A stretch of 64,000 bases of DNA from a virus (Duplodnaviria; Caudoviricetes). The stretch's first letter is position 1, and every line of letters starts with the position of its first letter. The translations under genes and the position numbers were made by a program. The stretch lies in the IMG/VR virus record IMGVR_UViG_3300029448_000025, positions 653-64,652 of that record. One strand, given 5' to 3'. Below the pieces are notes generated by a model, which saw only the letters and a list, made by a program, of their open reading frames with translations, ran no database searches and was not told the DNA's origin. Below, piece after piece: positions 5,045-55,092 of this stretch.

Positions 5045-5578
5045 ATGAACCTATTTATCCTCGATGAATCACCAGTTTACGCCGCTATGTCATACTGCGA
5101 CAAGCATGTGCCGAAACTTATTGTCGAATGTTTTCAGATGCTTGGCTCTGCGCAACGGAGGCATGGCGCACAGGATGCAGACATGCCCCTCACATCGAAA
5201 GGCACGCCCCTGAAAGGTGGCTACGCAAACCACCCCGCAACCCGTTGGGTGGGCGCAACCAGTGAAAATTATATGTGGACTTGTTATCACGCCGCTATGC
5301 TCTGCGAAGAGTATGAGAAGCGGTTCGACAAAACTCACAGTTGCGCAGACGGCATCGAACACCTATACATGATGTGTGGGCGAATCCCCGTTGGCGACCT
5401 GACTCCTTTTGCGCAATGTATGCCTGATGAATACAAAATCGAAGGCGACGCAGTAGCGGCATATCGCGCTTACTACAAGGGCGAGAAGGCACGCTTCGCA
5501 AAATGGGCGCGTGGGCGCACTGCGCCGTATTGGTGGACTGATGATTGGATTTACGGAATCAACTATCCTATCATTTGA
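5045..5578 (+). CDS. Pyrimidine-dimer DNA glycosylase / T4 endonuclease V-like protein
   Basis: MNLFILDESP..AA...CDKHVPKL.VE..QML, NHPATRWV and Q.MPDEYK...AV.AYR.YY are typical of the phage denV-like family. Confidence 0.75.
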   Translation: MNLFILDESPVYAAMSYCDKHVPKLIVECFQMLGSAQRRHGAQDADMPLTSKGTPLKGGYANHPATRWVGATSENYMWTCYHAAMLCEEYEKRFDKTHSCADGIEHLYMMCGRIPVGDLTPFAQCMPDEYKIEGDAVAAYRAYYKGEKARFAKWARGRTAPYWWTDDWIYGINYPII

Positions 5579-6033: not shown

Positions 6034-6858
6034 GTGCAACCTTTCAGATATTGCGGCGAGTGGCTTTTCACATCTCCGCAAAGAGTTGTCGTTGAGCGAT
6101 TCTGCGGTTGGCGTAGAGGTGGCAAACGGCGGAGGTTTCAACCCTTTGCGATTCTGCGTGCCGGAGAACACCGCATCATCATTGACGGCTACAAACGGAT
6201 GTGGCAACTCATCGACGCGATACAGCCTGACCTGCCCCGCAGGATGGTTGATGAGGGGATGAAGGGCGGATTTCACATAGACGGCCACCCGTCGTTTGCA
6301 GATGACCTGCAATCGTTTTTTCTTGAATGCGCAGACCTGTATGTTTGCTTCGACTTTGAAAATGTGAAAATCGTCGAACCCAACAGCAACCAGTTGTTCA
6401 CGGGCATGAGCGCATCAGGTGTAAGCACGCAAAAACCACCAGAATTATTTTCTCCTGCACCTGTCGGCGGTGCATTTACTTCTGCGCAAATCCAACTGCC
6501 GTTCAGGACTGCCGATGGCATTTACCTTTTGCCGTCGTTGGTGGTCGGGGATTATCCGCATTTGGTGGTTGCGCAAAATCTAAGCGAGGGTGATTCCTTT
6601 TCATTCGACTCGCCAAGCCTGATTAGTAGCGTCGTTTGCGGCGCAGAAAACCTTGACGCAAGACCTCATCGCACACTAAAGCGGGATTCAAGGCAGGGAA
6701 TTATTTCAGATATTGAGCGCAGACTTTTTGATTTGAACGAGACAACATGGCGACCAAATCCTTGTAGAGAGCGAGAAGCAGGAGTGGGTATGACCTTCGC
6801 AGAAAGGGATTCGATAGAGTATGAGCGTGCTGTTCGGTTATTCTTTTCACTGGATTGA
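6034..6858 (+). CDS. Hypothetical protein (274 aa)
   Basis: Only long ORF in the interval; TTAAAG box ~30 nt upstream of the GTG start. Confidence 0.55.
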   Translation: MQPFRYCGEWLFTSPQRVVVERFCGWRRGGKRRRFQPFAILRAGEHRIIIDGYKRMWQLIDAIQPDLPRRMVDEGMKGGFHIDGHPSFADDLQSFFLECADLYVCFDFENVKIVEPNSNQLFTGMSASGVSTQKPPELFSPAPVGGAFTSAQIQLPFRTADGIYLLPSLVVGDYPHLVVAQNLSEGDSFSFDSPSLISSVVCGAENLDARPHRTLKRDSRQGIISDIERRLFDLNETTWRPNPCREREAGVGMTFAERDSIEYERAVRLFFSLD

Positions 6859-7046
6859 AGGAATTAAAAAAGAAATAATGCGCACACTAAAAGCCTGATT
6901 GAGTTATTCTTTATTGTTTCCTTAGAGATTAGAATTAAAGCGCCGATGAGAAGTATAGAATATAATTTAACACACCATAGTAAAGAATAAAGAATAGCGC
7001 AGACTTAAGCGCAGTCCATTGATTTATTTTTTCTCAATTCCTTCAA
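6855..7046. repeat. AT-rich palindromic element A (candidate replication origin)
   Basis: Terminal inverted repeat TTGAAGGAATT (6855-6865) / AATTCCTTCAA (7036-7046), internal AAAGAATAA repeats; homologous to 53432-53627. Confidence 0.65.
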
Positions 7047-7068
7047 AGACAAAAAAAGAATAAGCAGG

Positions 7069-7074
7069 TTTATA
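7069..7074 (+). promoter_or_regulatory. Archaeal TATA box, representative of many (also ~4842, 12823, 15447, 17921, 23406, 26519, 27243, 53659, 60894)
   Basis: TTTATA/TTTAA boxes, often 25-30 nt upstream of a start codon, implying leaderless mRNAs. Confidence 0.6.
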
Positions 7075-7098
7075 CCGACATTGGGTTTAGGGTATAAC

Positions 7099-7911
7099 AT
7101 GGCATGGAGATTAACGACCACAGGAGAGACAGATTTTATTTTGAGCGAGGCGTGCATGGATGCTACGCACATACTAATTACAAACATGGATGATTCAAGC
7201 AATTTGCCTGAGTTGTTGGTTGAACATATTATCAAAGACCGACACGGTGAAACGGGGAAACCGGATGGCTACATTACAAGCAAGCACGCCATGACTGCAC
7301 CGCATAGAGTTTTGAACGAGAAGAATAATATGTGGCCGGTTTATCTACGGGATAACACATTGTATATTTGCGTAGCATCCCCGCCGACTGTATCGCCTAA
7401 GACCAACAGAAACGAATGGTTGTTCAACTATCCACCTGCACGCGATATTGCTATGCACTTCAAGCACGCAGAACATCTATCTACTTTAAGCACATTTGCT
7501 CTCGACTCCTTATTCAAAGACCCGCCATCCGAACCGAATACCGAATGCGTATTTGTTTCCGCAGATGAGTTCGGAACAGACGATGCACCGCAGACATTAC
7601 AGGCAGTTTGGGCGTGGGCATCTCCGCAGGTATTCTCGCTATGCACCGATGAAACGGAATCGGGCGCATTTATTATGCGCAACGAACAACCAAGCAACAG
7701 TGATTCATTCCCGATTGAACCTGCCGACTTTCAAAATATGTGCGACTTGTTGCGTGAACATGGGTTTTCAATCCTTCATGGCACAGCAGATGATGCGCAA
7801 AGCGTATATATGGGTATGGCATCGGAGGCTTTAGAGCGCATCAACGATTTGGTGGATAGTGCCGAATTAGAAAAGCGAAAGCAACGATATTCAGGAGGAA
7901 TGTTTCAATGA
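7099..7911 (+). CDS. Putative PAC2-family (proteasome assembly chaperone-like) protein
   Basis: Order of motifs (HILIT..., LLVEHII, GYITS, WPVY, LYIC...PP, ARDIA, LSTLS) resembles archaeal PAC2; C-terminus GGMFQ is HbYX-like. TTTATA box at 7069. Confidence 0.5.
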   Translation: MAWRLTTTGETDFILSEACMDATHILITNMDDSSNLPELLVEHIIKDRHGETGKPDGYITSKHAMTAPHRVLNEKNNMWPVYLRDNTLYICVASPPTVSPKTNRNEWLFNYPPARDIAMHFKHAEHLSTLSTFALDSLFKDPPSEPNTECVFVSADEFGTDDAPQTLQAVWAWASPQVFSLCTDETESGAFIMRNEQPSNSDSFPIEPADFQNMCDLLREHGFSILHGTADDAQSVYMGMASEALERINDLVDSAELEKRKQRYSGGMFQ

Positions 7912-9206
7912 CCGATATTTTCGACAGGGTTCAGAAGTTCTGCGACGACAACCACTTAGTCGATGTTGCCGACAAAGTTCCCGTATTCCTATGTAGCATT
8001 GGCGCACATATGTTTAACGCAGTGAACAAATGTTCAATGTGCGACTTCGACCCCCTCACTGCGCCCGAAGGCTCATTTGTTATCGAAGACTGCCCTCTGC
8101 GCCATACCGACTACCCGATTTATACTCCCGCATCCCGACTCGCAGATACACGCATTAACATCCTCATCAGAGGACAGAAAGGTTCGGGAAAAAATGTATT
8201 ACTCGACTTGTTCTGCGCAGAAAACACTGGTCTTCTATGGAACAATGAGGCTATGGGTGGCGTTGGTTTTAGAACCATGATAGGCGCAAACAGCATCACA
8301 GAAGCAGGTATGTTCGGTTCGGTAAACGAAGACGGCGAGATAATGGGGCGACCACTTGCTCGCGATATGTGCGGTGGTTTCATTTGCTTTGAAGAGTTTT
8401 CAAGCATGAGCGACGCAGGGAAAAAAGACCACAGCATCGACATGAAAAATCAACTACTCACTTCTCTCGACAGTGGCCGAGTCAATAAGGCCATGAAAGC
8501 GGGATGGGTGAAATACAATACTCGTTTCACGCTATGGGCAGGAACTCAACCGGCTCGTTTTGAATTGGAGTCCGGTCTTGACCGTCGTTTCTTCATCATT
8601 GACATTACAATGACTCCTGAGAAGGAGTTGGCATACAAAATTGCGCAGAACGCCCAAGCATCTACGCCTCCTGCGAAGAGGGCGGCTTTAGCGTCTGAGA
8701 TGATAGATTTGCGCAAATGGTTCATTGACCGACAAGAAAAGACTATGGCTAAAAAACCAAAGGGTGTTGTTTTCGGTGAAGACTTTGAACAATGGGTCTT
8801 GCAGGAATCAGTGCGTAGTTTTGAGTCCGACTTGTTCCGCAGAATGGCTATCGGATATGCCATGATGCAGGGGGAATGGGTCGATAAGGAATTGTTGATG
8901 GTCGATTTAGACGACCGACTGCGTGGCATTCTTGAAGACACACTGAAAATGCGCAGAAATGTTATGGATGAAGACATCCGTTTGATTCGCACTACCTATT
9001 GGGAAAAGGATGTTCCCCGTTCCGTTCTCGTCAAAGACATAGCACGCCTTGTCTGCGACAACGATTACTCCGCTTCTAAGAGGTGGATAGAAGAACACTT
9101 GATAGGTCAAGCGTGGTTCTCAGAGTTTATTCCTAAGCGAGATGGCAGAGGTCGCAAAGGCGTAGTCTGCCGTTTCGGATTTGAGGATGGTGTTATGAAT
9201 GGTTAA
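7908..9206 (+). CDS. mcm: MCM-like replicative helicase (AAA+ core only)
   Basis: INILIRGQKGSGK (Walker A), ITEAGMFGSV, GGFICFEEF (Walker B), LDSGRVNKAMKAG..YNTRFTLWAGTQP, LDRRF follow the MCM motif series. Confidence 0.8.
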   Translation: MTDIFDRVQKFCDDNHLVDVADKVPVFLCSIGAHMFNAVNKCSMCDFDPLTAPEGSFVIEDCPLRHTDYPIYTPASRLADTRINILIRGQKGSGKNVLLDLFCAENTGLLWNNEAMGGVGFRTMIGANSITEAGMFGSVNEDGEIMGRPLARDMCGGFICFEEFSSMSDAGKKDHSIDMKNQLLTSLDSGRVNKAMKAGWVKYNTRFTLWAGTQPARFELESGLDRRFFIIDITMTPEKELAYKIAQNAQASTPPAKRAALASEMIDLRKWFIDRQEKTMAKKPKGVVFGEDFEQWVLQESVRSFESDLFRRMAIGYAMMQGEWVDKELLMVDLDDRLRGILEDTLKMRRNVMDEDIRLIRTTYWEKDVPRSVLVKDIARLVCDNDYSASKRWIEEHLIGQAWFSEFIPKRDGRGRKGVVCRFGFEDGVMNG

Positions 9207-14533: not shown

Positions 14534-15436
14534 TTGATGAGCAGTATTTGGTGGGAAAAGCACCGGCCTTCGGGCCTCAAAGGGTTTGTCGGTCAAGAGC
14601 ATTTGATGGGCGAGATGAAGAAAATTGCCTATGAGAATGCGCCGATGCAACACTTCATATTCAACTCCGTAGAAGCCGGAACTGGCAAAACAACTCTCGC
14701 ATATATCCTCGCTCGGATGAAAGGTTTTGAGGTTGCGCACTTCAATGCTTCATCGAAGAGAACAAGAGGTATTGAGTTCATCGAAGACGACATCATACCG
14801 CTTGCGCAAAGCGGTTTAAACGAACTGATTATACTTCTCGATGAAGCAGACCAATTGACTCCTGCGGCGCAAAGCGCACTAAAGGGTGTCATAGAAGGCG
14901 CATCATGCTTTTTCATCCTTACATGCAACGACCTGAGCAAAGTTTCCCGTTGGCTTCAATCTCGATGTCAAGTGCGCACTTTCAACAAACACACGCAAAC
15001 GGACATCATCAAGGTGATGAACAAAATACTTTTCTCGGAGGGATTGAGTGTAGATGAAGAAAACCTCAAGACCATAGCAAATTGCCATGACGGGGATTTG
15101 CGCAATAGCATAGGCGCACTTCAAGCATATTCAACTCTCAACCCCGCAGAAGGACTAAACTTCTTACTGCGCATGAATGAAGGTTTTGATGCTCGGCGGT
15201 TTTTGCGCTTAACTACAAAAGAAAAGAGTATCACCGACGCAGTTAAACTGGTGGGCAACATGAACATAAGAAAGTTAATCCGTAGCGTTTTCGACTACGC
15301 AGTTTCAAGCAACGCCAAACCTGAGATGATTCGCTCAGTCATAGAATCCTGCGTGGTTTCCGAGAGAGATATGGTTAATGGCGTAGATGAGAAAATAGTC
15401 CTGTATGATTTTGCGAGAATGCTCTCATTGGGCTAA
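14534..15436 (+). CDS. rfcS: Replication factor C small subunit (clamp loader)
   Basis: WWEKHRP...VGQ, GTGKTT, FNAS..RGI, LLDEADQLT..AQ.AL, FILTCN, LQSRC, GDLR. Confidence 0.92.
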   Translation: MMSSIWWEKHRPSGLKGFVGQEHLMGEMKKIAYENAPMQHFIFNSVEAGTGKTTLAYILARMKGFEVAHFNASSKRTRGIEFIEDDIIPLAQSGLNELIILLDEADQLTPAAQSALKGVIEGASCFFILTCNDLSKVSRWLQSRCQVRTFNKHTQTDIIKVMNKILFSEGLSVDEENLKTIANCHDGDLRNSIGALQAYSTLNPAEGLNFLLRMNEGFDARRFLRLTTKEKSITDAVKLVGNMNIRKLIRSVFDYAVSSNAKPEMIRSVIESCVVSERDMVNGVDEKIVLYDFARMLSLG

Positions 15437-19958: not shown

Positions 19959-21172
19959 AGAAAATTATACTCGCAGATTGTTTAGATGCTTTGAAAGACA
20001 TGAAAAGTAATTCTGTTGATTCAATCGTTACCGACCCACCATACGGATTATCCTTCATGGGTAAAAAGTGGGATTATGATGTTCCTTCTGTTGAGATTTG
20101 GAGAGAGGCTTTGAGAGTCTTGAAGCATGGAGGACACCTTCTCTCATTTGCGGGTTCTCGCACTTATCACCGTATGGCGGTGAACATTGAAGACGCAGGG
20201 TTTGAAGTGAGGGATATGATTATGTGGGTGTATGGTTCGGGTTTCCCGAAGTCGCATAACATTAGCAAGGCGATAGACAAAACCGCAGGTGCAGAACGGG
20301 AAATTATAGGGTATAACAAATGGGATAATGGCGTCAATTTTTCTCATAGTGGTGGTGGAAAATACCAAGAAAAGTGGGATAAGAGGCAAAAATCACCTAT
20401 CATCGCCCCTGTTACGCCCGAAGCAAAACAATGGGATGGTTGGGGTTCAGCCCTCAAACCGGCCCATGAGCCTATTGTCGTCGCCCGTAAGCCCCTCATC
20501 GGCACTATCGTTGAGAATGTGCTTGAACATGGCACAGGTGGCTTGAACATTGATGGTTGCCGAGTCGGAGATTTTACAAATACTCAATTTTCGGGGATGA
20601 ACAGGTGGAATGATTTTAGGCATGGGGAGGGTAAATACGAAACAGAAGAAACAGTCAATGTCAAAGAAGGCAGGTTCCCTGCTAATTTCATTCACGATGG
20701 CTCGGATGAAGTAGTGAATCTATTCCCCTCAAACAAAAGCACCAAAAGACCCCCTTCCAAAAAAACAAATACAAGCAACGGTTTAACGCATGGGAAAATA
20801 AAGGGGTTGGCAACAGAACGGGGTTTCGACGATAGCGGTTCCGCCGCCCGATTCTTTTACTGCGCCAAAGCGAGCAAAGCCGAGCGAAGCGCAGGACTTG
20901 AAAACAACATACACCCAACGGTAAAGCCCGTCGCTCTGATGAAATACCTTTGCCGACTTGTTACGCCGCCAAACGGTATTGTTCTTGACCCGTTCATGGG
21001 TTCAGGAACAACAGGAATAGCGGCGTTGGCGGAAGACTTTTCATTTATAGGAGTGGAGAGAGACTCCCAATACTTTGAGATTGCGCAGAAGCGATTATCA
21101 CATATTTCAGAAGAAGTTGAGCGACATGAAGAAGTGCGCAGAAAACATGAAGAAAGGGTTGATTTATTTTGA
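19955..21172 (+). CDS. DNA N6-adenine/N4-cytosine methyltransferase (beta class)
   Basis: VTDPPY, HPTVKP, LDPFMGSGTTG. Confidence 0.93.
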   Translation: MKKIILADCLDALKDMKSNSVDSIVTDPPYGLSFMGKKWDYDVPSVEIWREALRVLKHGGHLLSFAGSRTYHRMAVNIEDAGFEVRDMIMWVYGSGFPKSHNISKAIDKTAGAEREIIGYNKWDNGVNFSHSGGGKYQEKWDKRQKSPIIAPVTPEAKQWDGWGSALKPAHEPIVVARKPLIGTIVENVLEHGTGGLNIDGCRVGDFTNTQFSGMNRWNDFRHGEGKYETEETVNVKEGRFPANFIHDGSDEVVNLFPSNKSTKRPPSKKTNTSNGLTHGKIKGLATERGFDDSGSAARFFYCAKASKAERSAGLENNIHPTVKPVALMKYLCRLVTPPNGIVLDPFMGSGTTGIAALAEDFSFIGVERDSQYFEIAQKRLSHISEEVERHEEVRRKHEERVDLF

Positions 21173-23397
21173 TTATCGAGAGGATGAATAAAAATGATGT
21201 CAATATCCGATACAGGGATGCAGACGGTAAAAGGCAGACTGCTACATACGGATGCAAACCCTTCTGTTTCATCGAAGAGTCAAGCATAGGTAAATTACAA
21301 CAACCTTTTGCCATCCTCCCTTCAAAACAAGAAACTGGACTTTACGGAGAAAGTTTGCGCAAAGTAGAGTTTGAGAATACGGAGGATTTGCGCAGTGCCG
21401 CAAAGAAAGTGCGCACATGGGAGTCAAACATTGCACACACCAACAGAGTTCTCGTTGAACGCAATGTCAATATCCCTATGTATGAACACCGGACATGGTT
21501 CTTCGATATGGAGTGGATGATGGATTCAGGACAAATCACCATCATAGTCATTCAGGATTCAGTAGATGGGGAGTATGTTTTATTCACGCACCCCGATTAT
21601 GAGGCGGGGTATTATGACATGATGCCCTGCGCAAACCACCCCGAAGGACACTCACACATATGGTCGGGAAAAAGAGATTTCAAGTGCTTCAACAGCGAAA
21701 AAGAGATGTTGCAGGACTTTGCCCGACTTATGCGTAGATGCGACCCTGATATACTGACGGGGTGGAATGTAGTCAATGCAGACTGCCAACAACTGTTCAA
21801 GCGATTCAAGGCAACGGGTCTTGACATACGCACATTATCCCCTCTGCGCAAAGTGCGTTATGACTTCGGGGAGTGGGCGCAACCAATCGCAGGGTATAAC
21901 ACCATAGACCTGATGATTTCTTTTAAGCAGTTATGGGCTTTGAAAAACGGGCAATTGCCTTCGATGGGCTTAGGCGCAGTTTCAGAGCATTGTCTCAAAG
22001 AAACAAAGGTCGAGTTGGCAGACGGCCATGACACTTACTTTAGCGACATCGGAACATACCTCGACTACGCAAGACAGGATGTGCGGTTGTTACCCCGCTT
22101 AGACTCACTGGTTGGCGCACTTGGTTATTTCACCGCTATTCAACATATTGCGCAGTGCGACATACGCACCACGCCATACATAACGAAGGTATTCCCCGTT
22201 CTCGCCCTGCGTGATGAAGAGTTTAAAGAGAAAATACCGAGCAAGCCTCAGTTTGAAAAGGTTGATTATCAGGGCGCAGATATTCAAGTGCCGGAGGCCG
22301 GAGTGTATAAAAACATAGGAATTATGGATATTAAGGCCATGTATCATTCAAATATCAAGAAGCATAACATTTGTTGGACTACACTTGATGGCGAAGGCGT
22401 AGATTGCGGGAATGGGGTCAAGTTTGCGCAGAGCAATGGTTTGCTCGGCAGACAGATGGATAAAATGACTGTTCTACGCAACAGATACAAAGCGTTGATG
22501 AAGTCTGCGGAAACAGAAAATGAGCGCAAAATGTATGACGCACTGCAATACGCCACTAAGTCTCTCGTTGCATCCATGTATGGCGTCGCCGGAGACTCAA
22601 AGTGCGGGTTTTATCACCCTGATATTGCCGCCGCTATCACTTTCACATCCCGACAGACACTTTTTGAATTGCGCAGTATTGCCAATGAATTAGGGTGCAA
22701 AGTCCGATACGGACACACCGACAGCATAATGTGCGACATCGAAAGCCCCGAAAAAGGATTGGAGTTTCTGCGCATAGTCAATGAGCGTATGCACCCCATC
22801 GAGACTGAGTTTGAAAAATGGTGCGACTCATTCCTGATTATGGCAAAGAATCGTTACGCCGCAAGTGTTTCATGGACTGAGGGCGAAGCCCACCCTGCGC
22901 AGATTTATGTCAAGGGCATTGAAATGAAACAGGGCAGACTACCAAAGTGTATGAAAAATGCGCTAAAGACCGTGATAGAAGGAATACTGCTCGATGAAGA
23001 CAGTGCGCAGATAACCTCTTCACTGGACTCCTTAGTTTCAAACATAGTCGATGGAGTTATCCCCGTAGATGAACTTTGCATCAAAGCAAAGTTGAATAAA
23101 AATCTAAGCGAATACAGAGTGTTGGGTGAAGCGAGAGCAGGTGCGCAGTGGGCGAACACACACTTAGGCAAAGGCTACCGAAAGGATGATTACTTTTTAA
23201 CCACGCTAAACGAGAATGGTGAATACATTGCCTTCGATGACCCAACCGAAGTTGAAGGTATTGCGCAGATTGGCTACCGTCATTTGGCAGAAAGATTCAT
23301 CGTTGATAAGGTCAAACCGTATTACTCAGTTATGGGTTGGGATATTATACGCTTAGAGAATGCTCTCAACGGTATTAGTAAAATAGATTGGATTTAG
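21169..23397 (+). CDS. polB: Family B DNA polymerase
   Basis: Exo I FDME, Exo II GWN...D, Exo III Y...DV; motifs DIKAMYHS, KSLVASMYG, YGHTDS, KNRY, KGIE. Confidence 0.93.
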   Translation: MIIERMNKNDVNIRYRDADGKRQTATYGCKPFCFIEESSIGKLQQPFAILPSKQETGLYGESLRKVEFENTEDLRSAAKKVRTWESNIAHTNRVLVERNVNIPMYEHRTWFFDMEWMMDSGQITIIVIQDSVDGEYVLFTHPDYEAGYYDMMPCANHPEGHSHIWSGKRDFKCFNSEKEMLQDFARLMRRCDPDILTGWNVVNADCQQLFKRFKATGLDIRTLSPLRKVRYDFGEWAQPIAGYNTIDLMISFKQLWALKNGQLPSMGLGAVSEHCLKETKVELADGHDTYFSDIGTYLDYARQDVRLLPRLDSLVGALGYFTAIQHIAQCDIRTTPYITKVFPVLALRDEEFKEKIPSKPQFEKVDYQGADIQVPEAGVYKNIGIMDIKAMYHSNIKKHNICWTTLDGEGVDCGNGVKFAQSNGLLGRQMDKMTVLRNRYKALMKSAETENERKMYDALQYATKSLVASMYGVAGDSKCGFYHPDIAAAITFTSRQTLFELRSIANELGCKVRYGHTDSIMCDIESPEKGLEFLRIVNERMHPIETEFEKWCDSFLIMAKNRYAASVSWTEGEAHPAQIYVKGIEMKQGRLPKCMKNALKTVIEGILLDEDSAQITSSLDSLVSNIVDGVIPVDELCIKAKLNKNLSEYRVLGEARAGAQWANTHLGKGYRKDDYFLTTLNENGEYIAFDDPTEVEGIAQIGYRHLAERFIVDKVKPYYSVMGWDIIRLENALNGISKIDWI

Positions 23398-26548: not shown

Positions 26549-27247
26549 GTGATATACGCAGACGACAGGGAGAATGAGAAACTTCTGCATCGGCTGTATG
26601 TCAAAGTTGGCGACAGAAAGACCGACCCGAAGGGGCAATGCGTCGTTAAGAGACTGGCTACCGCAGATTACATAATCAATGAATACGGCATCGAAGCAAA
26701 GGAGATTAACGACCTTTACCGTAGCATTCTCGGCATCGGGCGCAACGGGCGCACTATCAAACATCAACTTTCAGAATTATGCGAAGCGGTCGAGATTCCC
26801 GTTCTCGCAGTTTACAATACTACTCTAAAGCCATATTTCAAAGGGCGCAAAGCAACTCGTCAGGAGGTTGCTAAAGAGATTCTGCGCCAACAAAGAATTA
26901 TCAAGTCTTTCAAAATGACTCTTTACTCGCAGTTTCCTAAAGTGCGGCTTATCGAGTTTAGCGATATGGCAGAGTTTGTCGAATGGCTCGCGATACTGAA
27001 TATGAATTGCTCTATGCGCAAAGCATTGACTCCTGCGCCCAAAGAAAAGCCAAGCGACCCCCGACTACTTGCTCTGATGGGTGTTCAGGGAATATCGGAG
27101 ACAATCGCAACCCAACTTCTCGACCAATACGGATGTCTGCAAAACATACTCAAAAGTAAAGTAAAGCAAAAAGACCTGATGAAAATTAAGGGCGTTGGTC
27201 GGACAACAGCACGCAGAATAAAACAACTATCGAAACGATGGGTTTAA
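26549..27247 (+). CDS. ERCC4/XPF-family nuclease with (HhH)2 domain
   Basis: IYADDRE, L.TADY, IEAKE..DL..S; GVQGISETIA and KIKGVGRTTA HhH motifs. Confidence 0.85.
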   Translation: MIYADDRENEKLLHRLYVKVGDRKTDPKGQCVVKRLATADYIINEYGIEAKEINDLYRSILGIGRNGRTIKHQLSELCEAVEIPVLAVYNTTLKPYFKGRKATRQEVAKEILRQQRIIKSFKMTLYSQFPKVRLIEFSDMAEFVEWLAILNMNCSMRKALTPAPKEKPSDPRLLALMGVQGISETIATQLLDQYGCLQNILKSKVKQKDLMKIKGVGRTTARRIKQLSKRWV

Positions 27248-27358: not shown

Positions 27359-27430
27359 GGGCTTGTAGTGTAGAGGAAGCACACCCTCTTTGGTTGAGGG
27401 AGGTCGGAGGTTCAAATCCTCTCAAGTCCA
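27359..27430 (+). tRNA. tRNA-Pro(UGG), CCA not encoded
   Basis: Acceptor GGGCTTG/CAAGTCC-A, D arm GTGT/GCAC, anticodon arm CCCTC-TTTGGTT-GAGGG, T arm GGAGG-TTCAAAT-CCTCT. Confidence 0.88.
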
Positions 27431-27435
27431 CTTTA

Positions 27436-30400
27436 TCAATAAGGCTTAAAGTTATCAGACTGCGCATTTGAATGAATACTGTTTCTGCGCATTTTAACCG
27501 ATGTGTTATGGATTACAAGCGATTGATAAGGCGCAGAATCGCCACTACGGGCCGGTGAACGAGATATTTCAATAACCAAAGTATTACCTGCTGTTTCTGC
27601 GCCGTCGAGGTTTTGCGTAGTCAGTAGTGTTGTTGATTCTCTCGATGTTCCCATAGCAACGGTAGTGTTTTGAGAGATGCTTTGCCCAGTTTCTTTACAA
27701 GTTATTGTAGTAGTGATAAGCGCAGAACCACCACTGCTAATAGTATCGAGTGTTAAAGCACCTTCAAGACCGACAATACCTGTGCTTATGTCATTCGGAA
27801 CTCGGACAGTCATAGAGTGAGTATGTATCTCTCCTTGTTCGCCTGATTCCGAGTCTGTGATGCCAGCGAGAACAAAACCTTCATTTGTCTTCATAGCAAC
27901 CCCTTCACCCGTAGAAAGGATGCTATCTATCCCGTCTATATCTCTATCAGAAGACAGTGCGACAGACGGCTTCTTTTGCCCTATGATACCCCAAGAACCC
28001 GCAGAAGCGTGCGTGTCGGAGGAAAAGGATGCTCGACCCTTGATTACACGCAAAGCCGCATTAGACATCATATTGACATCATAACCTTGATTGTTGTTTG
28101 TTTGACTTGAACCACCTCCGACTGTTGGGGGAGGTAGAGCAGGTCGGGGATTGACAGCATCTCCACCGCCCGAAGATGGAGGGATTGCGGGTGAGGGGTC
28201 GGGTGAGGCAGGTGGGCCTGATTCGGGTTTGGCCGGATTGTTTGCGCCGCCACTGATGACCTGCGCAAGAGAATACGCAAAGTGCCTCTCTGTTCTCTCA
28301 AGACCTAAAATTACTTTCTCAACTTGTTGTTCATCCTTACTCCAACCAACAGAGTTTATTGAAAGAGTTTGGGTTTCTAAATCAATATGCGTATCTGTAA
28401 ATGTGAGCGTGGTTGATGGCAAATAATTTATGTCTTTTACTATTGCTACGCGTGGCGCATAGTATGAGGCTCTTTCATTACCCATATGGCCGAATACCGG
28501 ATGTTGGCGCACGCCGAGAGGGAATGGTGAAGCAAGGTTAAATGAAGAATATGTAGATAGGCCGTCAATGTTATGCGCATTTATTGTAGAACCTGTTATT
28601 ATTTTGCGCACTAATGCACGCAAATACTCTACATTTACAGAAACAAAAAGTTTTTTGCTTGTATCTCCTTGATAAGAAGAAGGAATAGTAATTGGATAAT
28701 AACCATTGCCATTAACAAGAACACTACTGCTACCTGAAAGCGAACTAATGTCATTTTGCGGAGGTTTGTTTCCGGCATCCGGCGCTTCATCAAAAGTATA
28801 ATCAAGAAGCCAAACCCTAAACACTACATTATCTGCGGTAGAACCACTGTCAATTGTAATTGCTAATCTTAATTTATTTGTTGTTGTTGCGCTTACTAAA
28901 TTAGTTCCTTTATCAACATGAATAATGTTTAGTGCGTAAGAAAGACTGTTTGAACCATGCCATGAATAAGCAGAGTTATAGCCTCTTTCTATTCCTTCTG
29001 CAAAGTTCATTGTATAAGTTCCGGCGGTTCCTGTTCTACTGCCTAATCCTGATTGACAATATATACTTAATTGAGTGCTACCTGTGTTCGGTTCTAAAAA
29101 GTTCCAACCATCGGCAAGTGCTTTAGTTGCACCATACACCGGACTACCACCATTTTGCGCAAACTTAGCAGTGTGAACTCTATTTGGCGCACTACCCGAT
29201 TCGACTATATTTAAAAGCGAACTACCAGTTGAGACATCAACTCCAACTGAAACCGGCCCCCTAACTCTCGGTTCTACGCCTTTGCTTTGCAAAGTATCTG
29301 TTTGGAGTATTGCGCTGTGAAACTTGCCGAGGTTTCTACTATTTTCCGCAGGTTTGTTAAAAGTTGTTTGCGCACTTTCAAGTGCAGACTGAATGCCTGA
29401 AAACGGAGAACCGCCCCATATGTTGCACCAAGAAGCATTTGAATCAATATGCGCTTTAGTTCCTTGACGGAAAACATCTTGAACATACCCATACCTTGCG
29501 CCGTAAAGCATAATATCGCTTTCGCCAGCCGCCCTTACCATCTGCGCAGTAATAGAAACTCTTGCGGTATTTTCACGCGCATATTCTTGTTTAGCAATAG
29601 ATAACGCTTCATCGGCAGAAAAAATCTTTGGTTGTTGCAAAATACGCCATCGAGTTACTTCGCCTGAAACGGCTTCGGGATAGTCTGCGTAGTTTGTATT
29701 ACCGTTGTAAAATACTCTAATGTTTGTTGCCTGAGAGCCAATCTGCGTGTTAAGAGAACTCATTAACATATTACTGCGGGTAAGGGTATGACCCGAAGCA
29801 TAGGATGGCCTAAAGGTAAGCATGTTGTCTCGATTTACGCTCCATGTAAATGTTTTTGTATTACCGCCAATACCTGAACCTTCTTTATCGCTCATTTGGT
29901 TTAAAAGGTTAAGAACGGTAGTTGCTTTTGCGTCAATTATTGAACCGAATGAATCAGTATCGCTACCCGAAGCCGCTAATTGAGTTATAGTCATGTTTTT
30001 TGTATTAGGAACTCCACCAAAATTATACATTAAAGGTAGTGCGCTGTTTTTAGCCCAAGTATCGGCAGTTAAAAGATTAAAAATAGTGCGCAGTTTATCG
30101 TGCGCAAAAAATGTTCCTGAGTTTGCAGAAGGAATATACCCTTGTAGATTTGTCATTAAGCGCAAAGAAAATAATGCGGCAGTAGTATTGTAAACAATTG
30201 CACTTTTAAAAACACCTGCGCCGTCTGTGCCGACTAAATCAATAACTGCGTTTGAACCTGTTGCGCCACCTGCGACATCGGCTTTTAACAAAACTTCAAG
30301 GGATTTAGGCCCGATAAGGTTTCCATTAGGATATGAAGTAATATACACGCCTGTTAATTTATCACCCTTTGTTGCATCCACGCCTTTGCCAGTCCATGAA

Positions 30401-33400
30401 TAATAATAAATTAAATCCTCCGCACTTCTACTATCGCCCTTTCTACAAACAATTGCACCATATCCTGCTGTATCAAATTGCGAAACATCATCTACAAAAA
30501 TTGTCGTGTCTGAAAGTGCTATGTCTTGATTTAAGAAAGAAAAGTCGTTAATCATATACTTTTGATTTTTATGCTTGATAAAAGTTGCATCATCGTTATT
30601 TTTAAACGACAAAACAGCATTTTTCCAATAAGAATCAGTTAAGTATGGAGTTCCTGCTACTGCTAAGGTATAGTCGCCAAAATCAACTTGACCTCCCGAA
30701 GAATACCCACTCCGACCACCTGTTGCGGCTGTATTTAGGTTGTAATATCGAGATGCGTCAATTATTACAAACGCACCTGCTGTTTCATCCCAATTAGCGT
30801 AGCGAGTATCAAGAGGTTCGTCATTTGAACCACCGGCTAAACTGCACCAAGCATTGCCCGTGTAAGGTTCGGATTCTGCGTCAAACTTCCAAATATCAAT
30901 GTCTTCGCCAATTTTTAATTCTGTATAAACATCAGGCTCGCCGCCTTCATTAAATTGGTCTGCAACAGTTAATTGAACTTTATAGTTATCAGAGGTTGGC
31001 AACAACAAACCAAAATCGTTTTTGCGGAAACCGCCATCTGCGTCTGCTGTTCCGTCGTTGCGCATGTCTGCCCAAAGAACATACAAATGCTTGTAAGAAT
31101 CACTTGAATTATTGCGCAGACTGTAAATTGTTTTATCGGCTTGCCATTTTCTTTTAACACCTTTAACCCCCGTTAATGTAATTTGCGCAGAATTAAGATA
31201 CTTTATTGTTCCTGTATCATCGACGGGTTCAAAAGTTGCATTAGAGTTTGCTGTTCTTCTTTCGGTAATATGAGGTTCAGTTAAACGGACTTTAACGCCA
31301 TCGGGGTCTGAATAATGACGAGCAGTGCCGTAATTCCAAGAAGAAGCATTTAGATTTCTTGCGTTCATATAAGCAAACTCATTTACACCTGCCTCAAAGG
31401 ATATTTTTGATGCTTTGTAAACACCGCTACCTGCCGCCGCAGTTATTTGAAACAAGCCGTTTAACAAATTATCTGAAAAACCTTCATGGATAACAATGTT
31501 CCCAACAGTCCAAGTTCCTGAACCTGATGTAAACTCTTCATCCGATAAATCCCATGAGGTAGCGGCTTCTGTTAAAGTTCCTGAAACACCACTAAAAATA
31601 ACATGCTGTGAGTCATTTGTTTCAATATCAACTAATTCAAGAATGCCATGTCGCATATCATGGTAATTAAACAAATGCAAAATTGCGGGTTCATCAATAA
31701 CAATTGAAGTAGCACCCTGCGCAATATCTGCGTGCAAACCATCCCAACCTGTTACTGTTCCGTTTGAATTATATGACCCTGCGCCATGAGTAGCAATATA
31801 CTGCGCAGACTTTGGCGTATTTAGATTTGAACCTGCACCAGCCCTCCATAACGGTATTGCGTCAATTATGCCAAACTGCGCCTTAAAGAAAGGAGATAAA
31901 GGCAAATCTCTCATAATTCTTGCGTGGATGTTTCTATTCTTTACTGCTTGATGTTCTGCGTCTGTTAAAAGTGCGCCTTCAAATAAAACGGGTTTTACAA
32001 GCGGGTATCGTTTTGAGTCATCACTGTTTATTTTTGTTAAATTATAAGCCATACCATAGTTGCTTGTTACTGTTGCGGTATCAGAAACAGCAAGCGCAGA
32101 AGGCCAACTTTCAAGTTCAACATGAACAGTAGTAGCAGAGGGAACGGCAACAACCTTTAGTGGTGATGCCTTTAAAAAAGAAGAACCAGTAGTGCCTATT
32201 CCCGAAGGCAAAATAAATACATCACCAATAGCAAGACTATGAGATGCTCTTGTTCGCAATTCAAACATAACACTTTTTACTACACTTCGATTAGTAGTTT
32301 CATCCAGTTTTGAGCGATAATGAATAGATTTACAAGTCCATTTATCTACTTCAAACAATCTATCTGTTGTTTCATCTGCGCCAGTAAAATCACATCTAAT
32401 TTCACATAAATAAGTATTAACATCAATAGAGCCGTTTCCCGCAGAATTATACCTTCTTTTATGCGCAATAAGACCATTTGTAGCAATAGCATAATCTCCA
32501 TCATAACCTGTTCCCTTAACAGTAATTGTATCACCTGCGGCTAAACCTTTGTATGTGCTTAACACTGTTGCGTATTGAGAAACTCCGCTTGATGCAAATG
32601 TTGGGTCTGTTGCTTCCTCCCATTCAACATAAAAACTGCGAGTATTTGCTGTGCCATCTACTTTATGTTGCACTGCAATAATTTCAGAAAGACTGTAAGT
32701 ATCATTATCAAAACCAAAACCCGCCCACTCCTTATCAGGAAAATTAGGGCCATCTTCGTCTTCACCCATATACATTTGAATAGCCGAACCTGAGTTTAGA
32801 TGAGTTCTTGCACTACTATCCTTTTGAAACTTAACGCTATTTACTACATTGTAAAAATTATGTCCTAAATCACTATTGCCAACAGTAAGAGAACTTGCGC
32901 CCATATTCATTTTTGTCAAAAGAGAAAGTGTGTCAAAATTAACTTGAGAAGAAGTAGAAGACATTGAAATATGCTCATTCAAAGAAAAAGTTGCACTACC
33001 CCCTGTTTCCCATAAAGGCAACACTCTATTGAGAATTGCCGATGAATCGCGAGCAGTAATTATTGTTTCGAGGGTTTGTTGATGTTTATTTTGTTTATGG
33101 TTTAAAGACTCAACAACTCCCGACCAAATAGGGCGTTCTTCTTCATCACGGAATGCTAATAAACGCCATTCTGTTGCGCCTACGCCTGTTGTAAGGGCCG
33201 CAAGAGCATATTCGTTTGAATCGTCATAAATAGATAGATTAAGGGTTGAAACATTATTTGTTCCATATTTGAAAGCAAACTTACCAACTTCGGGTTTTGC
33301 TACTGTGTTACCGATGTTATAATTTAACGGCAAAATAACTCCGACTCTATCAATTAAAGTGTTCGTGCAAAGATGTGTTTTACTGTTAAGATTAGCCCAA

Positions 33401-34623
33401 ACTGCATCTAAAGACCAACCTTTACTTGTTGTTAAAGAGTTGCCAGTTGCCGCAATAGAACCATTAGTAAAATGAGTTGTGCTATCGTTTAAATACGCTT
33501 TCCATGTGCCGCCAGCATGGTCGAAAACAACATAAATATCCGCCCATATTTCATCTGCATTGTATATTCGTGCGCTACTTTCGCCATCATCCCACTTTCT
33601 AAAAACACCGGAACTATAACTCATTAGCGTTGCAAGGTCAATTGCCACTGTTGCTAAAGGCGTTGTATCACTCCACTCGCCTGTCGATTTAGTAAAAGTT
33701 GCACTTGATTTGTAGCCAATTTTTAAAGAATAAGTCATTGGCACACCATCCATAATTCGATGTGAAGCCATCCTTATGTGAAAAACTTCACCTAAACCAC
33801 GCAAACGCAAAGGCCCATCATAACTAATTAGTCTTTCAGTGCCGCTTGATGCTTGAGAATAAATGTTATTTATTAAAAATGGCATTTCACTTGGCGAAGT
33901 AATGTCATGCAAATAATTATCAGGTCTTGATTCTGTAATATCCATTGCTGTTTGCGGCCCTTCGCCGGTATAAACACTTGCAAAATGAGTTCTTTTTATT
34001 GCGCTTAAAGCCCACTGAGAATCGTCTTGTTGTCCTATGCGAGCATAACCTCCTGCAAGTGGCATTTTTGCGGCAGGAAACCATGAAGAATCCGCAGGAA
34101 TATAACTGTCTGCGCCAAATGTTAAATCCATAACACCCATTGGCGCAAAATAAGAGCCGCTTGTATCATGTCCGTTTGTAAAGTTAAGGTATGAAGAACC
34201 ACTCGCACCATTAAATCGAACTCTGTTTGCCGATAAAGAAGAAGGATGTTGTAGATTTGACCTATGTTCATAATCAGAACCAATTGACGGGTCAATAGTT
34301 AGCCATTCATGGATTCCTCTATTTATTGTAAGTTTATTTGCGTTATTAGTAATAAATGTATTAAGTCCTTCATCAACATCACTTTCTGCACGCACAGGGT
34401 CGCCCGAAGCATAATGCCCACTGCGCAGACGGTCAATGTAAGAATACGCATAGCGTGGATTTAGTATATTAGTTCCGCCAAAAATTGAACCATGATGAGA
34501 GTTTTCGTGGTCGTGTGTGCGTATTGTAGCGTCGTTTAAATCGTCTGCAATTGCTCTTGCACCGTTAAAGTCGTCGTAATAACCTGAAAGCCAAAATGTC
34601 TGTTTTAACCCTATTGACTTCAC
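27436..34623 (-). CDS. Giant tail tip / baseplate-adhesin protein (~2400 aa)
   Basis: Directly downstream of the tape measure gene; beta-rich G/S/T/N composition; GTG at 34623 overlaps the TMP stop and has an AGGTGG SD. Confidence 0.7.
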   Translation of the reverse strand: MKSIGLKQTFWLSGYYDDFNGARAIADDLNDATIRTHDHENSHHGSIFGGTNILNPRYAYSYIDRLRSGHYASGDPVRAESDVDEGLNTFITNNANKLTINRGIHEWLTIDPSIGSDYEHRSNLQHPSSLSANRVRFNGASGSSYLNFTNGHDTSGSYFAPMGVMDLTFGADSYIPADSSWFPAAKMPLAGGYARIGQQDDSQWALSAIKRTHFASVYTGEGPQTAMDITESRPDNYLHDITSPSEMPFLINNIYSQASSGTERLISYDGPLRLRGLGEVFHIRMASHRIMDGVPMTYSLKIGYKSSATFTKSTGEWSDTTPLATVAIDLATLMSYSSGVFRKWDDGESSARIYNADEIWADIYVVFDHAGGTWKAYLNDSTTHFTNGSIAATGNSLTTSKGWSLDAVWANLNSKTHLCTNTLIDRVGVILPLNYNIGNTVAKPEVGKFAFKYGTNNVSTLNLSIYDDSNEYALAALTTGVGATEWRLLAFRDEEERPIWSGVVESLNHKQNKHQQTLETIITARDSSAILNRVLPLWETGGSATFSLNEHISMSSTSSQVNFDTLSLLTKMNMGASSLTVGNSDLGHNFYNVVNSVKFQKDSSARTHLNSGSAIQMYMGEDEDGPNFPDKEWAGFGFDNDTYSLSEIIAVQHKVDGTANTRSFYVEWEEATDPTFASSGVSQYATVLSTYKGLAAGDTITVKGTGYDGDYAIATNGLIAHKRRYNSAGNGSIDVNTYLCEIRCDFTGADETTDRLFEVDKWTCKSIHYRSKLDETTNRSVVKSVMFELRTRASHSLAIGDVFILPSGIGTTGSSFLKASPLKVVAVPSATTVHVELESWPSALAVSDTATVTSNYGMAYNLTKINSDDSKRYPLVKPVLFEGALLTDAEHQAVKNRNIHARIMRDLPLSPFFKAQFGIIDAIPLWRAGAGSNLNTPKSAQYIATHGAGSYNSNGTVTGWDGLHADIAQGATSIVIDEPAILHLFNYHDMRHGILELVDIETNDSQHVIFSGVSGTLTEAATSWDLSDEEFTSGSGTWTVGNIVIHEGFSDNLLNGLFQITAAAGSGVYKASKISFEAGVNEFAYMNARNLNASSWNYGTARHYSDPDGVKVRLTEPHITERRTANSNATFEPVDDTGTIKYLNSAQITLTGVKGVKRKWQADKTIYSLRNNSSDSYKHLYVLWADMRNDGTADADGGFRKNDFGLLLPTSDNYKVQLTVADQFNEGGEPDVYTELKIGEDIDIWKFDAESEPYTGNAWCSLAGGSNDEPLDTRYANWDETAGAFVIIDASRYYNLNTAATGGRSGYSSGGQVDFGDYTLAVAGTPYLTDSYWKNAVLSFKNNDDATFIKHKNQKYMINDFSFLNQDIALSDTTIFVDDVSQFDTAGYGAIVCRKGDSRSAEDLIYYYSWTGKGVDATKGDKLTGVYITSYPNGNLIGPKSLEVLLKADVAGGATGSNAVIDLVGTDGAGVFKSAIVYNTTAALFSLRLMTNLQGYIPSANSGTFFAHDKLRTIFNLLTADTWAKNSALPLMYNFGGVPNTKNMTITQLAASGSDTDSFGSIIDAKATTVLNLLNQMSDKEGSGIGGNTKTFTWSVNRDNMLTFRPSYASGHTLTRSNMLMSSLNTQIGSQATNIRVFYNGNTNYADYPEAVSGEVTRWRILQQPKIFSADEALSIAKQEYARENTARVSITAQMVRAAGESDIMLYGARYGYVQDVFRQGTKAHIDSNASWCNIWGGSPFSGIQSALESAQTTFNKPAENSRNLGKFHSAILQTDTLQSKGVEPRVRGPVSVGVDVSTGSSLLNIVESGSAPNRVHTAKFAQNGGSPVYGATKALADGWNFLEPNTGSTQLSIYCQSGLGSRTGTAGTYTMNFAEGIERGYNSAYSWHGSNSLSYALNIIHVDKGTNLVSATTTNKLRLAITIDSGSTADNVVFRVWLLDYTFDEAPDAGNKPPQNDISSLSGSSSVLVNGNGYYPITIPSSYQGDTSKKLFVSVNVEYLRALVRKIITGSTINAHNIDGLSTYSSFNLASPFPLGVRQHPVFGHMGNERASYYAPRVAIVKDINYLPSTTLTFTDTHIDLETQTLSINSVGWSKDEQQVEKVILGLERTERHFAYSLAQVISGGANNPAKPESGPPASPDPSPAIPPSSGGGDAVNPRPALPPPTVGGGSSQTNNNQGYDVNMMSNAALRVIKGRASFSSDTHASAGSWGIIGQKKPSVALSSDRDIDGIDSILSTGEGVAMKTNEGFVLAGITDSESGEQGEIHTHSMTVRVPNDISTGIVGLEGALTLDTISSGGSALITTTITCKETGQSISQNTTVAMGTSRESTTLLTTQNLDGAETAGNTLVIEISRSPARSGDSAPYQSLVIHNTSVKMRRNSIHSNAQSDNFKPY

Positions 34624-50340: not shown

Positions 50341-51073
50341 TCACTCTTTTTTAATACGCTCTAATTCTTCTGTTGCTTTATCCATTGCAACATCAACAAT
50401 TTTTTGCGCTTCTGCGTCAATATCAACATCTTCCATATAACTTCTTAATCTTTGAAAGCCAACTTCATGTTTTTCGACTTCGTGTTCGTGCGATTGTTGT
50501 ATTGCGGCTAATTGCATTAAATGCTCATGGTTGTCTGCATCACGCTCTCTTTCATGCTTTAATTCAACGGCAATGTTTTCAATTTCAATACTTTGTTCTG
50601 ATTCCCACATGCGCAAAACTGTATTTAGCGCAGGGGCGGCTACTCCACCAATAATTGCAATAAGAGCAATAAATCCATCGAGATTTGCAAGGACAACATC
50701 AGGTTTCCATATACCCATACCGACTACTGCGCCTGATGCAAGAAGCCAAAGATAAATTGCAGGAATTACTGTTCGCTTAACCATTCGGTCATTAAATGAT
50801 TGATTGTTGTTTCTTTTTTTCATATTACTCACCTTAAATTGTCATACCTGTTAAATCAACTCCGAGAGTCAATCCTAATACTGAAACAAGAATTAAACCA
50901 CCTTTGCGCAAAACTGTAATAGCAGTTGCAATTTGCGCATTTAACTCTGCAATACTAATCATCATATCAGTTTGCGCAGAAGCCATTTTTTCAATCATTT
51001 CATCATGCTTTAGTAATTTTGTTTCAACTGCGCTTATTCGCACATCTTGGACTGCATCATTCGTCGTCGGCAT
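50341..51073 (-). CDS. Two small membrane proteins (50341-50832 with 2 TM; 50834-51073 coiled coil plus C-terminal TM), holin-like candidates
   Basis: Hydrophobic segments VIPAIYLWLLASGAVVGMGIW, FIALIAIIGGVAA and GLILVSVLGLTLGV. Confidence 0.55.
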
Positions 51074-52560: not shown

Positions 52561-53228
52561 TTATTTTTTAGATGATTTAGGTTTCTTAGTTGATTTTGCG
52601 GTTTTTTTCTTTGCAGGAGGGATAATATCGTAGTTACCATCTTTATTTAGACGATAAACTGTGCCATCGGCCTCAGTCCACTCTTTGAGTTGCTCACTCA
52701 TACTTAATCACCTCAAACAATACTTTCTTGGTAAGTAATATAAACATCACAAATACCGGCTGTAATAGCGGCCCCTGCAATAGTAAGTAAAAGATTATGC
52801 GCACCTGCTAAACCAATTGCACTTCCACCGGCAGTAGCGCACAATTCCCAACCAACAGTAGCGGCGGCAAGTGCGGCATCGTCAAAAGCAGTAGCGGCCA
52901 TAATACCGGCGGCTGTTCCTGTATATCCAAGAGCGATTGTTGCGCTACCCGAAGAAGTAAATGCTTGGGTCGGAACTACTAAAAACGATTTGATAAATGT
53001 TCCGGCGACAAGTGTTTGCGCTGTTCCGTCTGCGGCAGTTAAAGTTTTAGCGCCAGTAGTCTTTGAAGAACCGTCATAAGAAAACTTTAGGGTCTTTTCA
53101 ATAGTAGTTGCTGTCTTTGCGTCAGTTACGGAGTCTGCTTGTAGTTTTGCGGTTGATACCGACAAATCATCAAGGTGTCTATTTTTAAGAGCGCGGTCGA
53201 GTTGCGAGTTGGTGTGTCCTACTGCCAT
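52561..53228 (-). CDS. Putative virion protein (52713-53228) and small basic ORF (52561-52701)
   Basis: TQAFTSSGSATIALG...G..DVYITY beta-sandwich; SD GAGGTGA before the 46 aa ORF. Confidence 0.55.
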
Positions 53229-54914: not shown

Positions 54915-55092
54915 TGACGAACAGTTAATCCTTACTGAAATGGGGCATGATTATGTCGCATTTAATATATTTTCAGAAGAATTAGTTATTGGCATTATGC
55001 TTAATAGAAATGAAATTGAAGAGTTATGCAACTCTTTGCTTGAATACTGTGGAATACCTGTTTTTGAGGTGAAAAACAATGATGAAGAATAG
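54895..55092 (+). CDS. Small hypothetical protein
   Basis: 65 aa ORF coupled to the terminase gene. Confidence 0.5.
   Translation: MPIWKSDDEQLILTEMGHDYVAFNIFSEELVIGIMLNRNEIEELCNSLLEYCGIPVFEVKNNDEE

Follow-up and report, generated by a model that had tools for sequence, protein, structure and literature searches.

A virus-encoded protein with a predicted PAC2/Pba fold and an HbYX-like C-terminal tail: a candidate for docking on the host 20S proteasome

Could a tailed virus carry a protein of its own that docks on the proteasome of its host? The question is raised by a gene on the + strand of IMG/VR record IMGVR_UViG_3300029448_000025 (Duplodnaviria; Caudoviricetes), of which positions 653 to 64,652 were analyzed. 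This stretch of 64,000 nucleotides (nt), hereafter the window, is nearly the whole of the 64,652-bp record, which CheckV rates as complete and which comes from a tailed virus. Working from the letters alone, the original prediction had read the gene at 7099..7911 as encoding a relative of the archaeal PAC2 proteins PbaA and PbaB. We find that the protein very probably adopts the PAC2/Pba fold, as judged from a predicted model, and that its C-terminal tail is in all likelihood a functional docking peptide. By analogy with the archaeal proteins, we tentatively propose that this tail docks on the α ring of the host 20S proteasome. The gene and its parts, together with what adjoins it, are as follows, with open reading frame abbreviated as ORF and amino acids as aa.

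6859..7098, + strand: non-coding gap of 240 nt before the gene (sequence)
7099..7911, + strand: gene for the protein with the predicted PAC2/Pba fold, 270 aa, stop codon included (ORF, translation, homologs, fold)
7411..7446, + strand: codons of residues 105-116, motif N-E-W-L-F-N-Y-P-P-A-R-D, where conservation in the family is highest (alignments)
7783..7887, + strand: codons of residues 229-263, the long C-terminal helix (DSSP on the model), counterpart of the PbaB α6 "tentacle" (PMC3605417)
7894..7908, + strand: codons of the last five residues, G-G-M-F-Q, HbYX-like (Met as the hydrophobic residue, Phe/Tyr as the aromatic one, then any residue with a free carboxylate)
7908..9206, + strand: translationally coupled P-loop ATPase, 432 aa (Walker A GxxGSGK, Walker B FEEF, invariant Cys/His cluster)

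The ORF is a genuine gene and not a chance frame. The frame opens at TTG 7081 (7081..7911, + strand); the N-termini of homologs fall close to the ATG at 7099, which yields 270 residues with the C-terminus ...RYSGGMFQ, and the stop codon overlaps the ATG of the next ORF as ATGA. A TTTATA at 7069-7074, read by eye ~27 nt ahead of the ATG, is a possible archaeal-type TATA box for a leaderless mRNA, and a scan for sigma-70 promoters gave 3 signals against 4.1 ± 2.1 expected from shuffles, with none above the shuffles. The gene had been thought to head the replication operon. It does open a transcription-unit-like block, but not the whole strand, because the unannotated 274-aa ORF upstream of the gap (6034-6858, + strand) is itself conserved, if weakly, in a related virus (E 3e-6). 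Of the sequencing datasets listed as containing the sequence, 20 are DNA, from the marine and viral metagenomes of 10 studies, and none is RNA.

The AlphaFold2 model, which was built on 14 homologs, has a mean pLDDT (per-residue confidence) of 75.7 and a pTM (predicted template modeling score) of 0.77. It consists of an α/β core, the long helix and a low-confidence end at residues 264-270, as assigned by DSSP; loops 66-74 and 97-109 are also uncertain. Foldseek against the PDB returned 19 matches at E <= 0.001. The first 18 rows listed hold Pyrococcus furiosus PbaA (E 1.2e-6) and PbaB (E 1.3e-5), Thermoplasma acidophilum Ta1441 (3gaa; E 1.6e-4) and chains of yeast and human proteasome-precursor complexes; two actinobacterial proteins come next, followed by unrelated folds at E ~1e-2. 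Independently of Foldseek, VIA-align 2 compared the model with 48,161 representative chains and likewise placed PbaA (Z 13.6 over 190 aa, 4.0 Å) and PbaB (Z 13.3 over 204 aa, 4.2 Å) at the top. These were followed by 3e35 (12.3), 3gaa (12.2), 2p90 (11.9) and 3mnf, a "PAC2 family protein" (11.4), and then by 4g4s_O (10.8), 8qyj_J (9.9) and 7ls6_P (8.8), whose identity as chaperones is taken from chain lettering. Because the usual best chance Z of this aligner is 7-8 by its own note, the PAC2 block at 8.8-13.6 stands clear of chance; the next fold class, the nucleoside phosphorylases, begins at Z 8.1. The call of a PAC2-like fold, made by eye, therefore holds, since PAC2/Pba chaperones rank first in two independent fold searches, and the three-layer α/β/α architecture of this family is the one that the protein is very likely to have.

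Conservation at the C-terminus is strict within the family. The ending G/N-[GAV]-M-[F/Y]-[Q/G/A] is common to the 14 aligned homologs and the 33 viral loci without exception, and the stretch ahead of this tail is variable among the aligned homologs. In the 57 stored family sequences, which include this virus's own twice, the ending [GAV]-M-[F/Y]-x is found in 54, which fit the HbYX motif in position and form. Met is invariant in these 54; the aromatic residue is Phe in 47, as the original prediction had it, and the canonical Tyr in a minority of 7; the C-terminal residue is Q (35), G (14) or A (5); and position -4 is Gly in 52. Of the 3 exceptions, two are short gene calls that were probably truncated, and the third runs on for four residues beyond A-M-F-Q. 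The tail codons vary synonymously (GGA, GGG, GGT or GGC for Gly; TTT or TTC for Phe), and five loci in which 162-186 nt separate the two genes have kept the tail intact. On both grounds the alignments show that selection holds the tail as protein, and they rule out the idea that Gly-Gly is there only because its codons form the ribosome-binding site of the downstream gene. The helical tail ending ...YSGGMFQ that had been read from the letters is also borne out, in that the model has the helix at 229-263 followed by the flexible-looking low-confidence end.

By sequence, the protein belongs to no named family. Searches of Pfam (hmmscan, E <= 1), PHROGs and NCBIfam gave no family, the curated cut-off of PF09754 (PAC2) was not reached, and a PDB sequence search with the single sequence and with the family profile gave no match. 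A word-indexed search found 11 relatives and a search of 1.84 billion cluster representatives found 7, two of them fragments. A profile of 27 sequences gathered 54, all at E <= 5.6e-65 with nothing between that value and 0.01, and none of these 54 carries a precomputed Pfam domain. The core family amounts to 33 viral loci in IMG/VR, with identities to this protein from 83% down to 27%. A tblastn search of 50,697 phage records with the protein and a distant family member gave no match, a pattern scan from the family profile found nothing in one genome each of 185,579 prokaryote species, and the ESM Atlas gave no usable match for the protein. Two viral proteins without a name in BFVD share the fold (E 3e-18 and 3e-8), which places unannotated members of the family in UniProt. 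Across these comparisons the protein is shown to be fast-evolving and, so far, to be found only in viruses. Its most conserved stretch is the motif at residues 105-116, in which 10 of 12 residues are invariant in the 27-sequence alignment (A114 is nearly invariant; E106 is not listed as conserved) and which overlaps partly with the low-pLDDT loop 97-109.

The downstream gene allowed a wider view. With the ATPase as query, IMG/VR yielded 188 relatives, and 80 of these loci were examined. In 77 of these, a + strand ORF of at least 60 aa ends within -260..+45 nt of the ATPase match, and 69 of the 77 upstream ORFs are significant relatives of the PAC2-like protein by a hidden Markov model (HMM) of the 27-sequence alignment, 31 of them core and 38 distant. 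All 31 core ORFs keep the tail; 28 of them have the full W-L-F-N-Y-P-P-A-R-D, and the other 3 have Ile for Ala.

Based on the predicted fold and the form of the tail, we propose that the protein works like archaeal PbaB/PbaA in a marine archaeal host. PbaB is described as having a peripheral α6 "tentacle" helix and, beyond it, ~20 disordered residues; these include the HbYX motif that PbaB needs to bind 20S (PMC3605417). The viral protein would probably form an oligomer on the α ring of the host 20S proteasome, with its tails entering the pockets between α subunits. Met would occupy the hydrophobic pocket, Phe or Tyr the tyrosine slot, and the terminal carboxylate would sit on the conserved lysine of the α subunit. 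It is the fold and the tail form together that point to the 20S α ring, and we know of no other pocket that reads an HbYX-type motif. Docking of this kind could have either of two outcomes: gate opening, in which case the protein would be an ATP-independent activator, or blocking, in which case it would occupy the sites used by host ATPase caps. It is also possible that early, stoichiometric co-expression with the ATPase reflects a second, PbaB-like holdase role toward that ATPase. Docking on 20S and chaperoning of the ATPase are not exclusive readings, because in PbaB the same C-terminal segments serve 20S activation and holdase activity alike. A fuller version of the proposal, which is rather doubtful, holds that a captured, heavily diverged Pba-like protein of an archaeal virus caps the host 20S through Met-Phe/Tyr-x tails early in infection; in its boldest form the protein would tether the co-translated ATPase to 20S as a virus-built regulatory cap. 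On this reading, the other tail types of sister clades would mark retargeting to other partners.

An archaeal host, which this proposal supposes, is likely. The virus carries two blocks of genes. The + strand replication block holds an RFC-like clamp loader, a family-B polymerase, a PD-(D/E)XK nuclease and an ERCC4/HhH nuclease, and the - strand structural block holds portal, tail tube and tape measure genes.

14534-15436, + strand: RFC-like clamp loader, replication block
21169-23397, + strand: family-B polymerase (PolB), replication block
55079-56578: large terminase (TerL)

The nearest matches of the clamp loader are archaeal RFC small subunits (E 1.8e-27, 6.9e-24), followed by eukaryotic RFC, with T4 gp44 at 1e-12. 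PolB is closest to Pol α and to Thermococcales PolB (E 2.8e-31, 5e-26), with RB69 at 3e-11, and within the phage collection its nearest matches are haloarchaeal tailed viruses. The ERCC4/HhH nuclease has no match in the 50,697 phage records and matches archaeal XPF/Hef structures weakly (E 1e-3); at 26549-27247 (+ strand), it is a short XPF-type protein with ERCC4 and two HhH domains. The portal and putative capsid proteins have no phage match. Among ~107 ORFs scanned against Pfam, no lysis enzyme or host-specific factor was recognized, and Shine-Dalgarno-like 5-mers, a feature common to bacteria and many archaea, stand ahead of 28 of 93 ORFs. A Marine Group II (MGII) archaeon may be the host, to judge from the archaeal-type replication proteins and by analogy with the GroEL-bearing "magroviruses".

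Several findings weigh against a protein that docks on a host 20S. The fold match is moderate (TM 0.41-0.57, identity 5-15%), and the viral structure behind it is predicted rather than solved. A six-frame search of the entire virus with PF09754 (E <= 10) gave 0 matches, whereas 6 of 14 control genomes matched, and profiles of 14 or 27 homologs reach no PAC2 chain in the PDB and no cellular protein. A proteasome subunit encoded by the virus was looked for and none was found. A co-fold of residues 211-270 with three Thermoplasma α subunits (Swiss-Prot reference), run without controls, scored 0.01 against a mark of 0.32, a value that weighs on neither side of the binding question. The penultimate Phe of 47 of the 54 tails lacks the hydroxyl that bonds Gly19 of the archaeal α subunit; there, the Tyr hydroxyl is described as bonding the Gly19 carbonyl and the carboxylate as pairing with Lys66 (PMC10349882, PMC10349142). 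In favor of docking, Phe at the penultimate position is reported to be as good or better for the human 20S (PMC8907193).

The distant homologs add to this side of the balance. The tail is kept in only 3 of the 38 distant, HMM-significant syntenic homologs (G-V-M-W-Q twice, G-G-M-F-G once); other distant tails read ...EFGE, ...TAGE, ...NQQ, ...GEMV or acidic-Trp-hydrophobic (...DEWI, ...DDWI, ...AWMV). Two upstream ORFs that are not significant relatives (L078, L079) keep G-G-M-F but add D-E-D-I, and one family member (P0036) likewise has four residues beyond the motif. Such loss or burial of the tail is not what a universally conserved host pocket would predict. The original prediction had looked to the last three residues of homologs and counted variable C-termini as evidence to the contrary; conservation stands within the family, and does not extend to the 35 of 38 distant syntenic homologs that have other tails. 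Several tail types thus exist in the superfamily, and the HbYX-like one is a widespread example. The position before the ATPase gene, by contrast, is constant across all clades, which favors a virus-internal partner.

The remaining points against concern the host. A GroEL-type (group I) chaperonin of ~510-525 aa, whose presence in 15 of 28 records of the wider group and sister clades speaks for an archaeon, is encoded in 0 of 24 of this virus's own clade. TerL and the clamp loader match T4-like bacterial phages first within the phage collection. A related 61-kb viral contig is filed in a metagenome-assembled genome (MAG) of the bacterial order Opitutales that has no PF00227 (proteasome family) or PF09754 match. 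This MAG is 1 of 401 genomes of the order to show such a link, and the tetranucleotide correlation between the viral contig and a 20-kb piece of the MAG is 0.28; the link is weak.

The constant gene order is accommodated by the view that the protein is an assembly chaperone or loader of the virus's own P-loop ATPase ring, a serious alternative that we nevertheless consider somewhat unlikely. The protein would act for a viral client as PAC1-PAC2 does on the α ring, with its tail plugging into the ATPase ring or into another part of the replisome. The ATPase gene follows directly in 33 of 33 family loci, with the 4-nt overlap in 26, and the replication block that holds the gene pair also holds the clamp loader, PolB and nucleases. 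The ATPase is 69-83% identical in the same genomes and 59-70% in the wider set; across these clades the PAC2-like protein is down to 27-48%, or 17%. Tail type is clade-specific, and co-evolution of the tail with a viral partner would explain the differences from clade to clade. PbaB, moreover, is described as having ATP-independent holdase activity through its C-terminal segments (PMC3605417). Against this, the tail has exactly the HbYX form, which would be a coincidence if the pocket were in a viral ATPase, and no fused PAC2-ATPase form was found among longer proteins, although this is weak evidence. Nor can a pocket be pointed to, as the AlphaFold2 model of the ATPase is poor (pLDDT 51.7, with residues 41-235 under 50). 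To our knowledge, no PAC2-fold protein serves a helicase or AAA-type ring, the literature not having been searched for this.

By sequence, the ATPase itself falls into no family. Its lone Pfam match is Sigma54_activat (E 0.027, over the Walker A region); 23 diverse homologs give only weak P-loop matches to Pfam (FtsK_SpoIIIE in 8, Sigma54_activat in 5). The PDB sequences and NCBIfam gave no match, and the ESM Atlas returned viral hypothetical clusters only, one of them with PF00910 on 10% of its members. Coupling of the two genes had been predicted together with an identification of the neighbor as MCM. The coupling is tight, as the overlaps attest, but the ATPase has no match to the MCM model PF00493, and PF00493 matches best elsewhere in the virus, in ORF 58257-60863. 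A paper on magroviruses lists an "MCM protein" among conserved genes, a label with no established link to this ATPase. The ATPase may be a replicative helicase, and an MCM-like fold is possible for it.

On the 61,226-bp contig filed in the Opitutales MAG (G001:C3), a syntenic 275-aa ORF ends ...Q-G-M-W-G, keeps W..Y.P.RD, and aligns with the PAC2-like family at an hhalign probability of 91% (E 9.5e-7, 17% identity). The filing of this contig in a MAG without a proteasome-family match is one of the reasons to consider that the tail docks on another ring or hub, such as a host ATPase or protease other than 20S, a sliding clamp or a polymerase, with the PAC2 fold as a scaffold; a host ATPase or protease other than 20S would be needed if the host is a bacterium. 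PAC2-family genes do occur in organisms without 20S: the matches of PF09754 in the control genomes include Thermotoga maritima, which has no 20S core. In addition, several distant clades end in acidic-aromatic peptides (...DEWI, ...DDWI, ...EDWL), which we take to resemble the C-terminal hub-binding tails of replication proteins. This explanation is nonetheless improbable, for the link to the MAG is the single, compositionally poor one described above, the replication proteins are of archaeal type, and the tail presumably does not fit clamp-binding motifs. Least probable is an enzymatic role, in which the protein would belong to the phosphorylase/hydrolase-like fold class (nucleoside phosphorylase, peptidyl-tRNA hydrolase, pyroglutamyl peptidase), with an active site formed by invariant polar residues (E10, T11, D12, S61, K62, H63, H69, N105, N110, R115, D116, Q168; mostly at strand ends and loops of the model) and the tail secondary: enzymes are indeed fold neighbors at Z 6-8, but they reach 8.1 or less where PAC2-type chains reach 8.8-13.6, no enzyme family matches by sequence, the Opitutales-contig homolog lacks the E-T-D-F and S-K-H motifs while keeping W..Y.P.RD and the tail, and closest structure and conserved catalytic site, taken together, do not place the protein in the nucleoside phosphorylase/hydrolase-like class.

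Other genes of the virus and of its Opitutales-contig relative may be recorded here. Upstream of the PAC2-like gene, 5045-5578 (+ strand) encodes a T4 endonuclease V-like pyrimidine-dimer glycosylase (Pfam 7.2e-6); this ORF and ORF 6034-6858 have syntenic counterparts in the distant relative, in which the XPF-type nuclease is also conserved. That contig is a permuted genome, as its two ends each hold part of the ATPase gene, and it carries an amidoligase/glutamine-amidotransferase fusion (947 aa) and a γ-glutamyl cyclotransferase that are absent from the 64-kb window. At 58257-61962 (+ strand), residues ~500-745 of an 868-aa protein match a dynein-type AAA_5 or CobS-like "porphyrin biosynthesis" ATPase (Pfam 2.1e-17, phrog_249 1.6e-30), and an overlapping 371-aa DUF7192 protein follows; by sequence, the two look like a MoxR/CobS-CobT-like pair with a long unexplained N-terminal extension. 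Beside the tape-measure gene, 27436-34647 (- strand) is a 2403-aa ORF with no Pfam match, presumably a giant tail or host-recognition protein, which has a 1897-aa counterpart on the Opitutales contig; a further protein there, of 915 aa, contains collagen repeats. Between the divergent gene blocks lies a single tRNA-Pro (anticodon TGG; 27359-27431, + strand), detected by ARAGORN and Rfam (56.1 bits) and with no CCA encoded; its arms seem too diverged to serve as a clue to the host. Finally, a near-identical 16-nt word, A-T-A-C-T-T-T-[C/G]-[T/A]-T-A-A-G-T-C, lies ~23-38 nt before the ATG of both ORFs 51057-52505 (- strand) and 52713-53228 (- strand), and may be a late promoter element.

Eukaryotic viruses commonly manipulate the proteasome. 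In the full-text literature, as screened by title and abstract, no PAC2/Pba-like or HbYX-bearing protein of an archaeal or bacterial virus is reported. The terms "proteasome" and "PAC2" are absent, by term search, from the main text of the marine archaeal virus papers examined, whose supplementary gene tables may annotate the gene. By its model, the protein is a virus-borne, sequence-orphan variant of the known PAC2/Pba fold family, with its function a prediction. The family is abundant in marine viromes, given its core loci and the number of linked ATPase genes in IMG/VR, and is invisible to sequence annotation. Should the target be the proteasome, protein degradation would become a battleground in archaeal infection, and the tail would be a natural Phe-type HbYX variant. 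Should it be the ATPase, the PAC2 fold would have been reused as a ring chaperone outside the proteasome, which bears on chaperone evolution.

The viral protein can be compared with several known systems. Actinobacterial PAC2-family proteins (PDB 3E35, 2P90, 3MNF, 2WAM) share the fold (Z 12.3, 11.9 and 11.4), but they are bacterial, their function is unknown, and they have no sequence link to the viral protein. Eukaryotic Pba1-Pba2 and PAC1-PAC2 are of the same fold class, as far as the lettering of the matched chains identifies them. They are heterodimeric cellular assembly factors whose tails dock on the α ring, whereas the virus has a single gene with no paralog seen in its genome (1 match). 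Among viruses, the published descriptions of the MGII "magroviruses" (PMC5434244, PMC5332604) match this one as marine tailed viruses with PolB, an RFC-like clamp loader and nucleases. As in magrovirus group C, a metallophosphatase nuclease gene lies beside the structural block and no ligase was found. A GroEL-type chaperonin is likewise common to the published magroviruses and to the records of the wider group noted above, with the near group of this virus differing in its lack; this likeness is one of published descriptions and not of sequence comparison.

The closest resemblance is to the archaeal Pba proteins. PbaA (P. furiosus, PDB 3WZ2, 5Y9N) and Ta1441 (3GAA) are, with PbaB, the best structural matches, and both are reported to carry the HbYX motif; PbaA is described as a pentamer with its C-terminal helix packed on the core and as not binding mature 20S (PMC3605417). 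PbaB (P. furiosus, PDB 3VR0), an archaeal homolog of PAC2 that activates the proteasome independently of ATP, differs from the viral protein in sequence, with an identity of 10-14% and no HMM link, and in the tail, where the viral penultimate residue is mostly Phe and the hydrophobic position always Met. The viral protein is, moreover, encoded by a virus, with its gene locked to that of a P-loop ATPase. What the two have in common is their similar size, the predicted fold, and a peripheral C-terminal helix from which a disordered tail extends to end in hydrophobic-aromatic-x.

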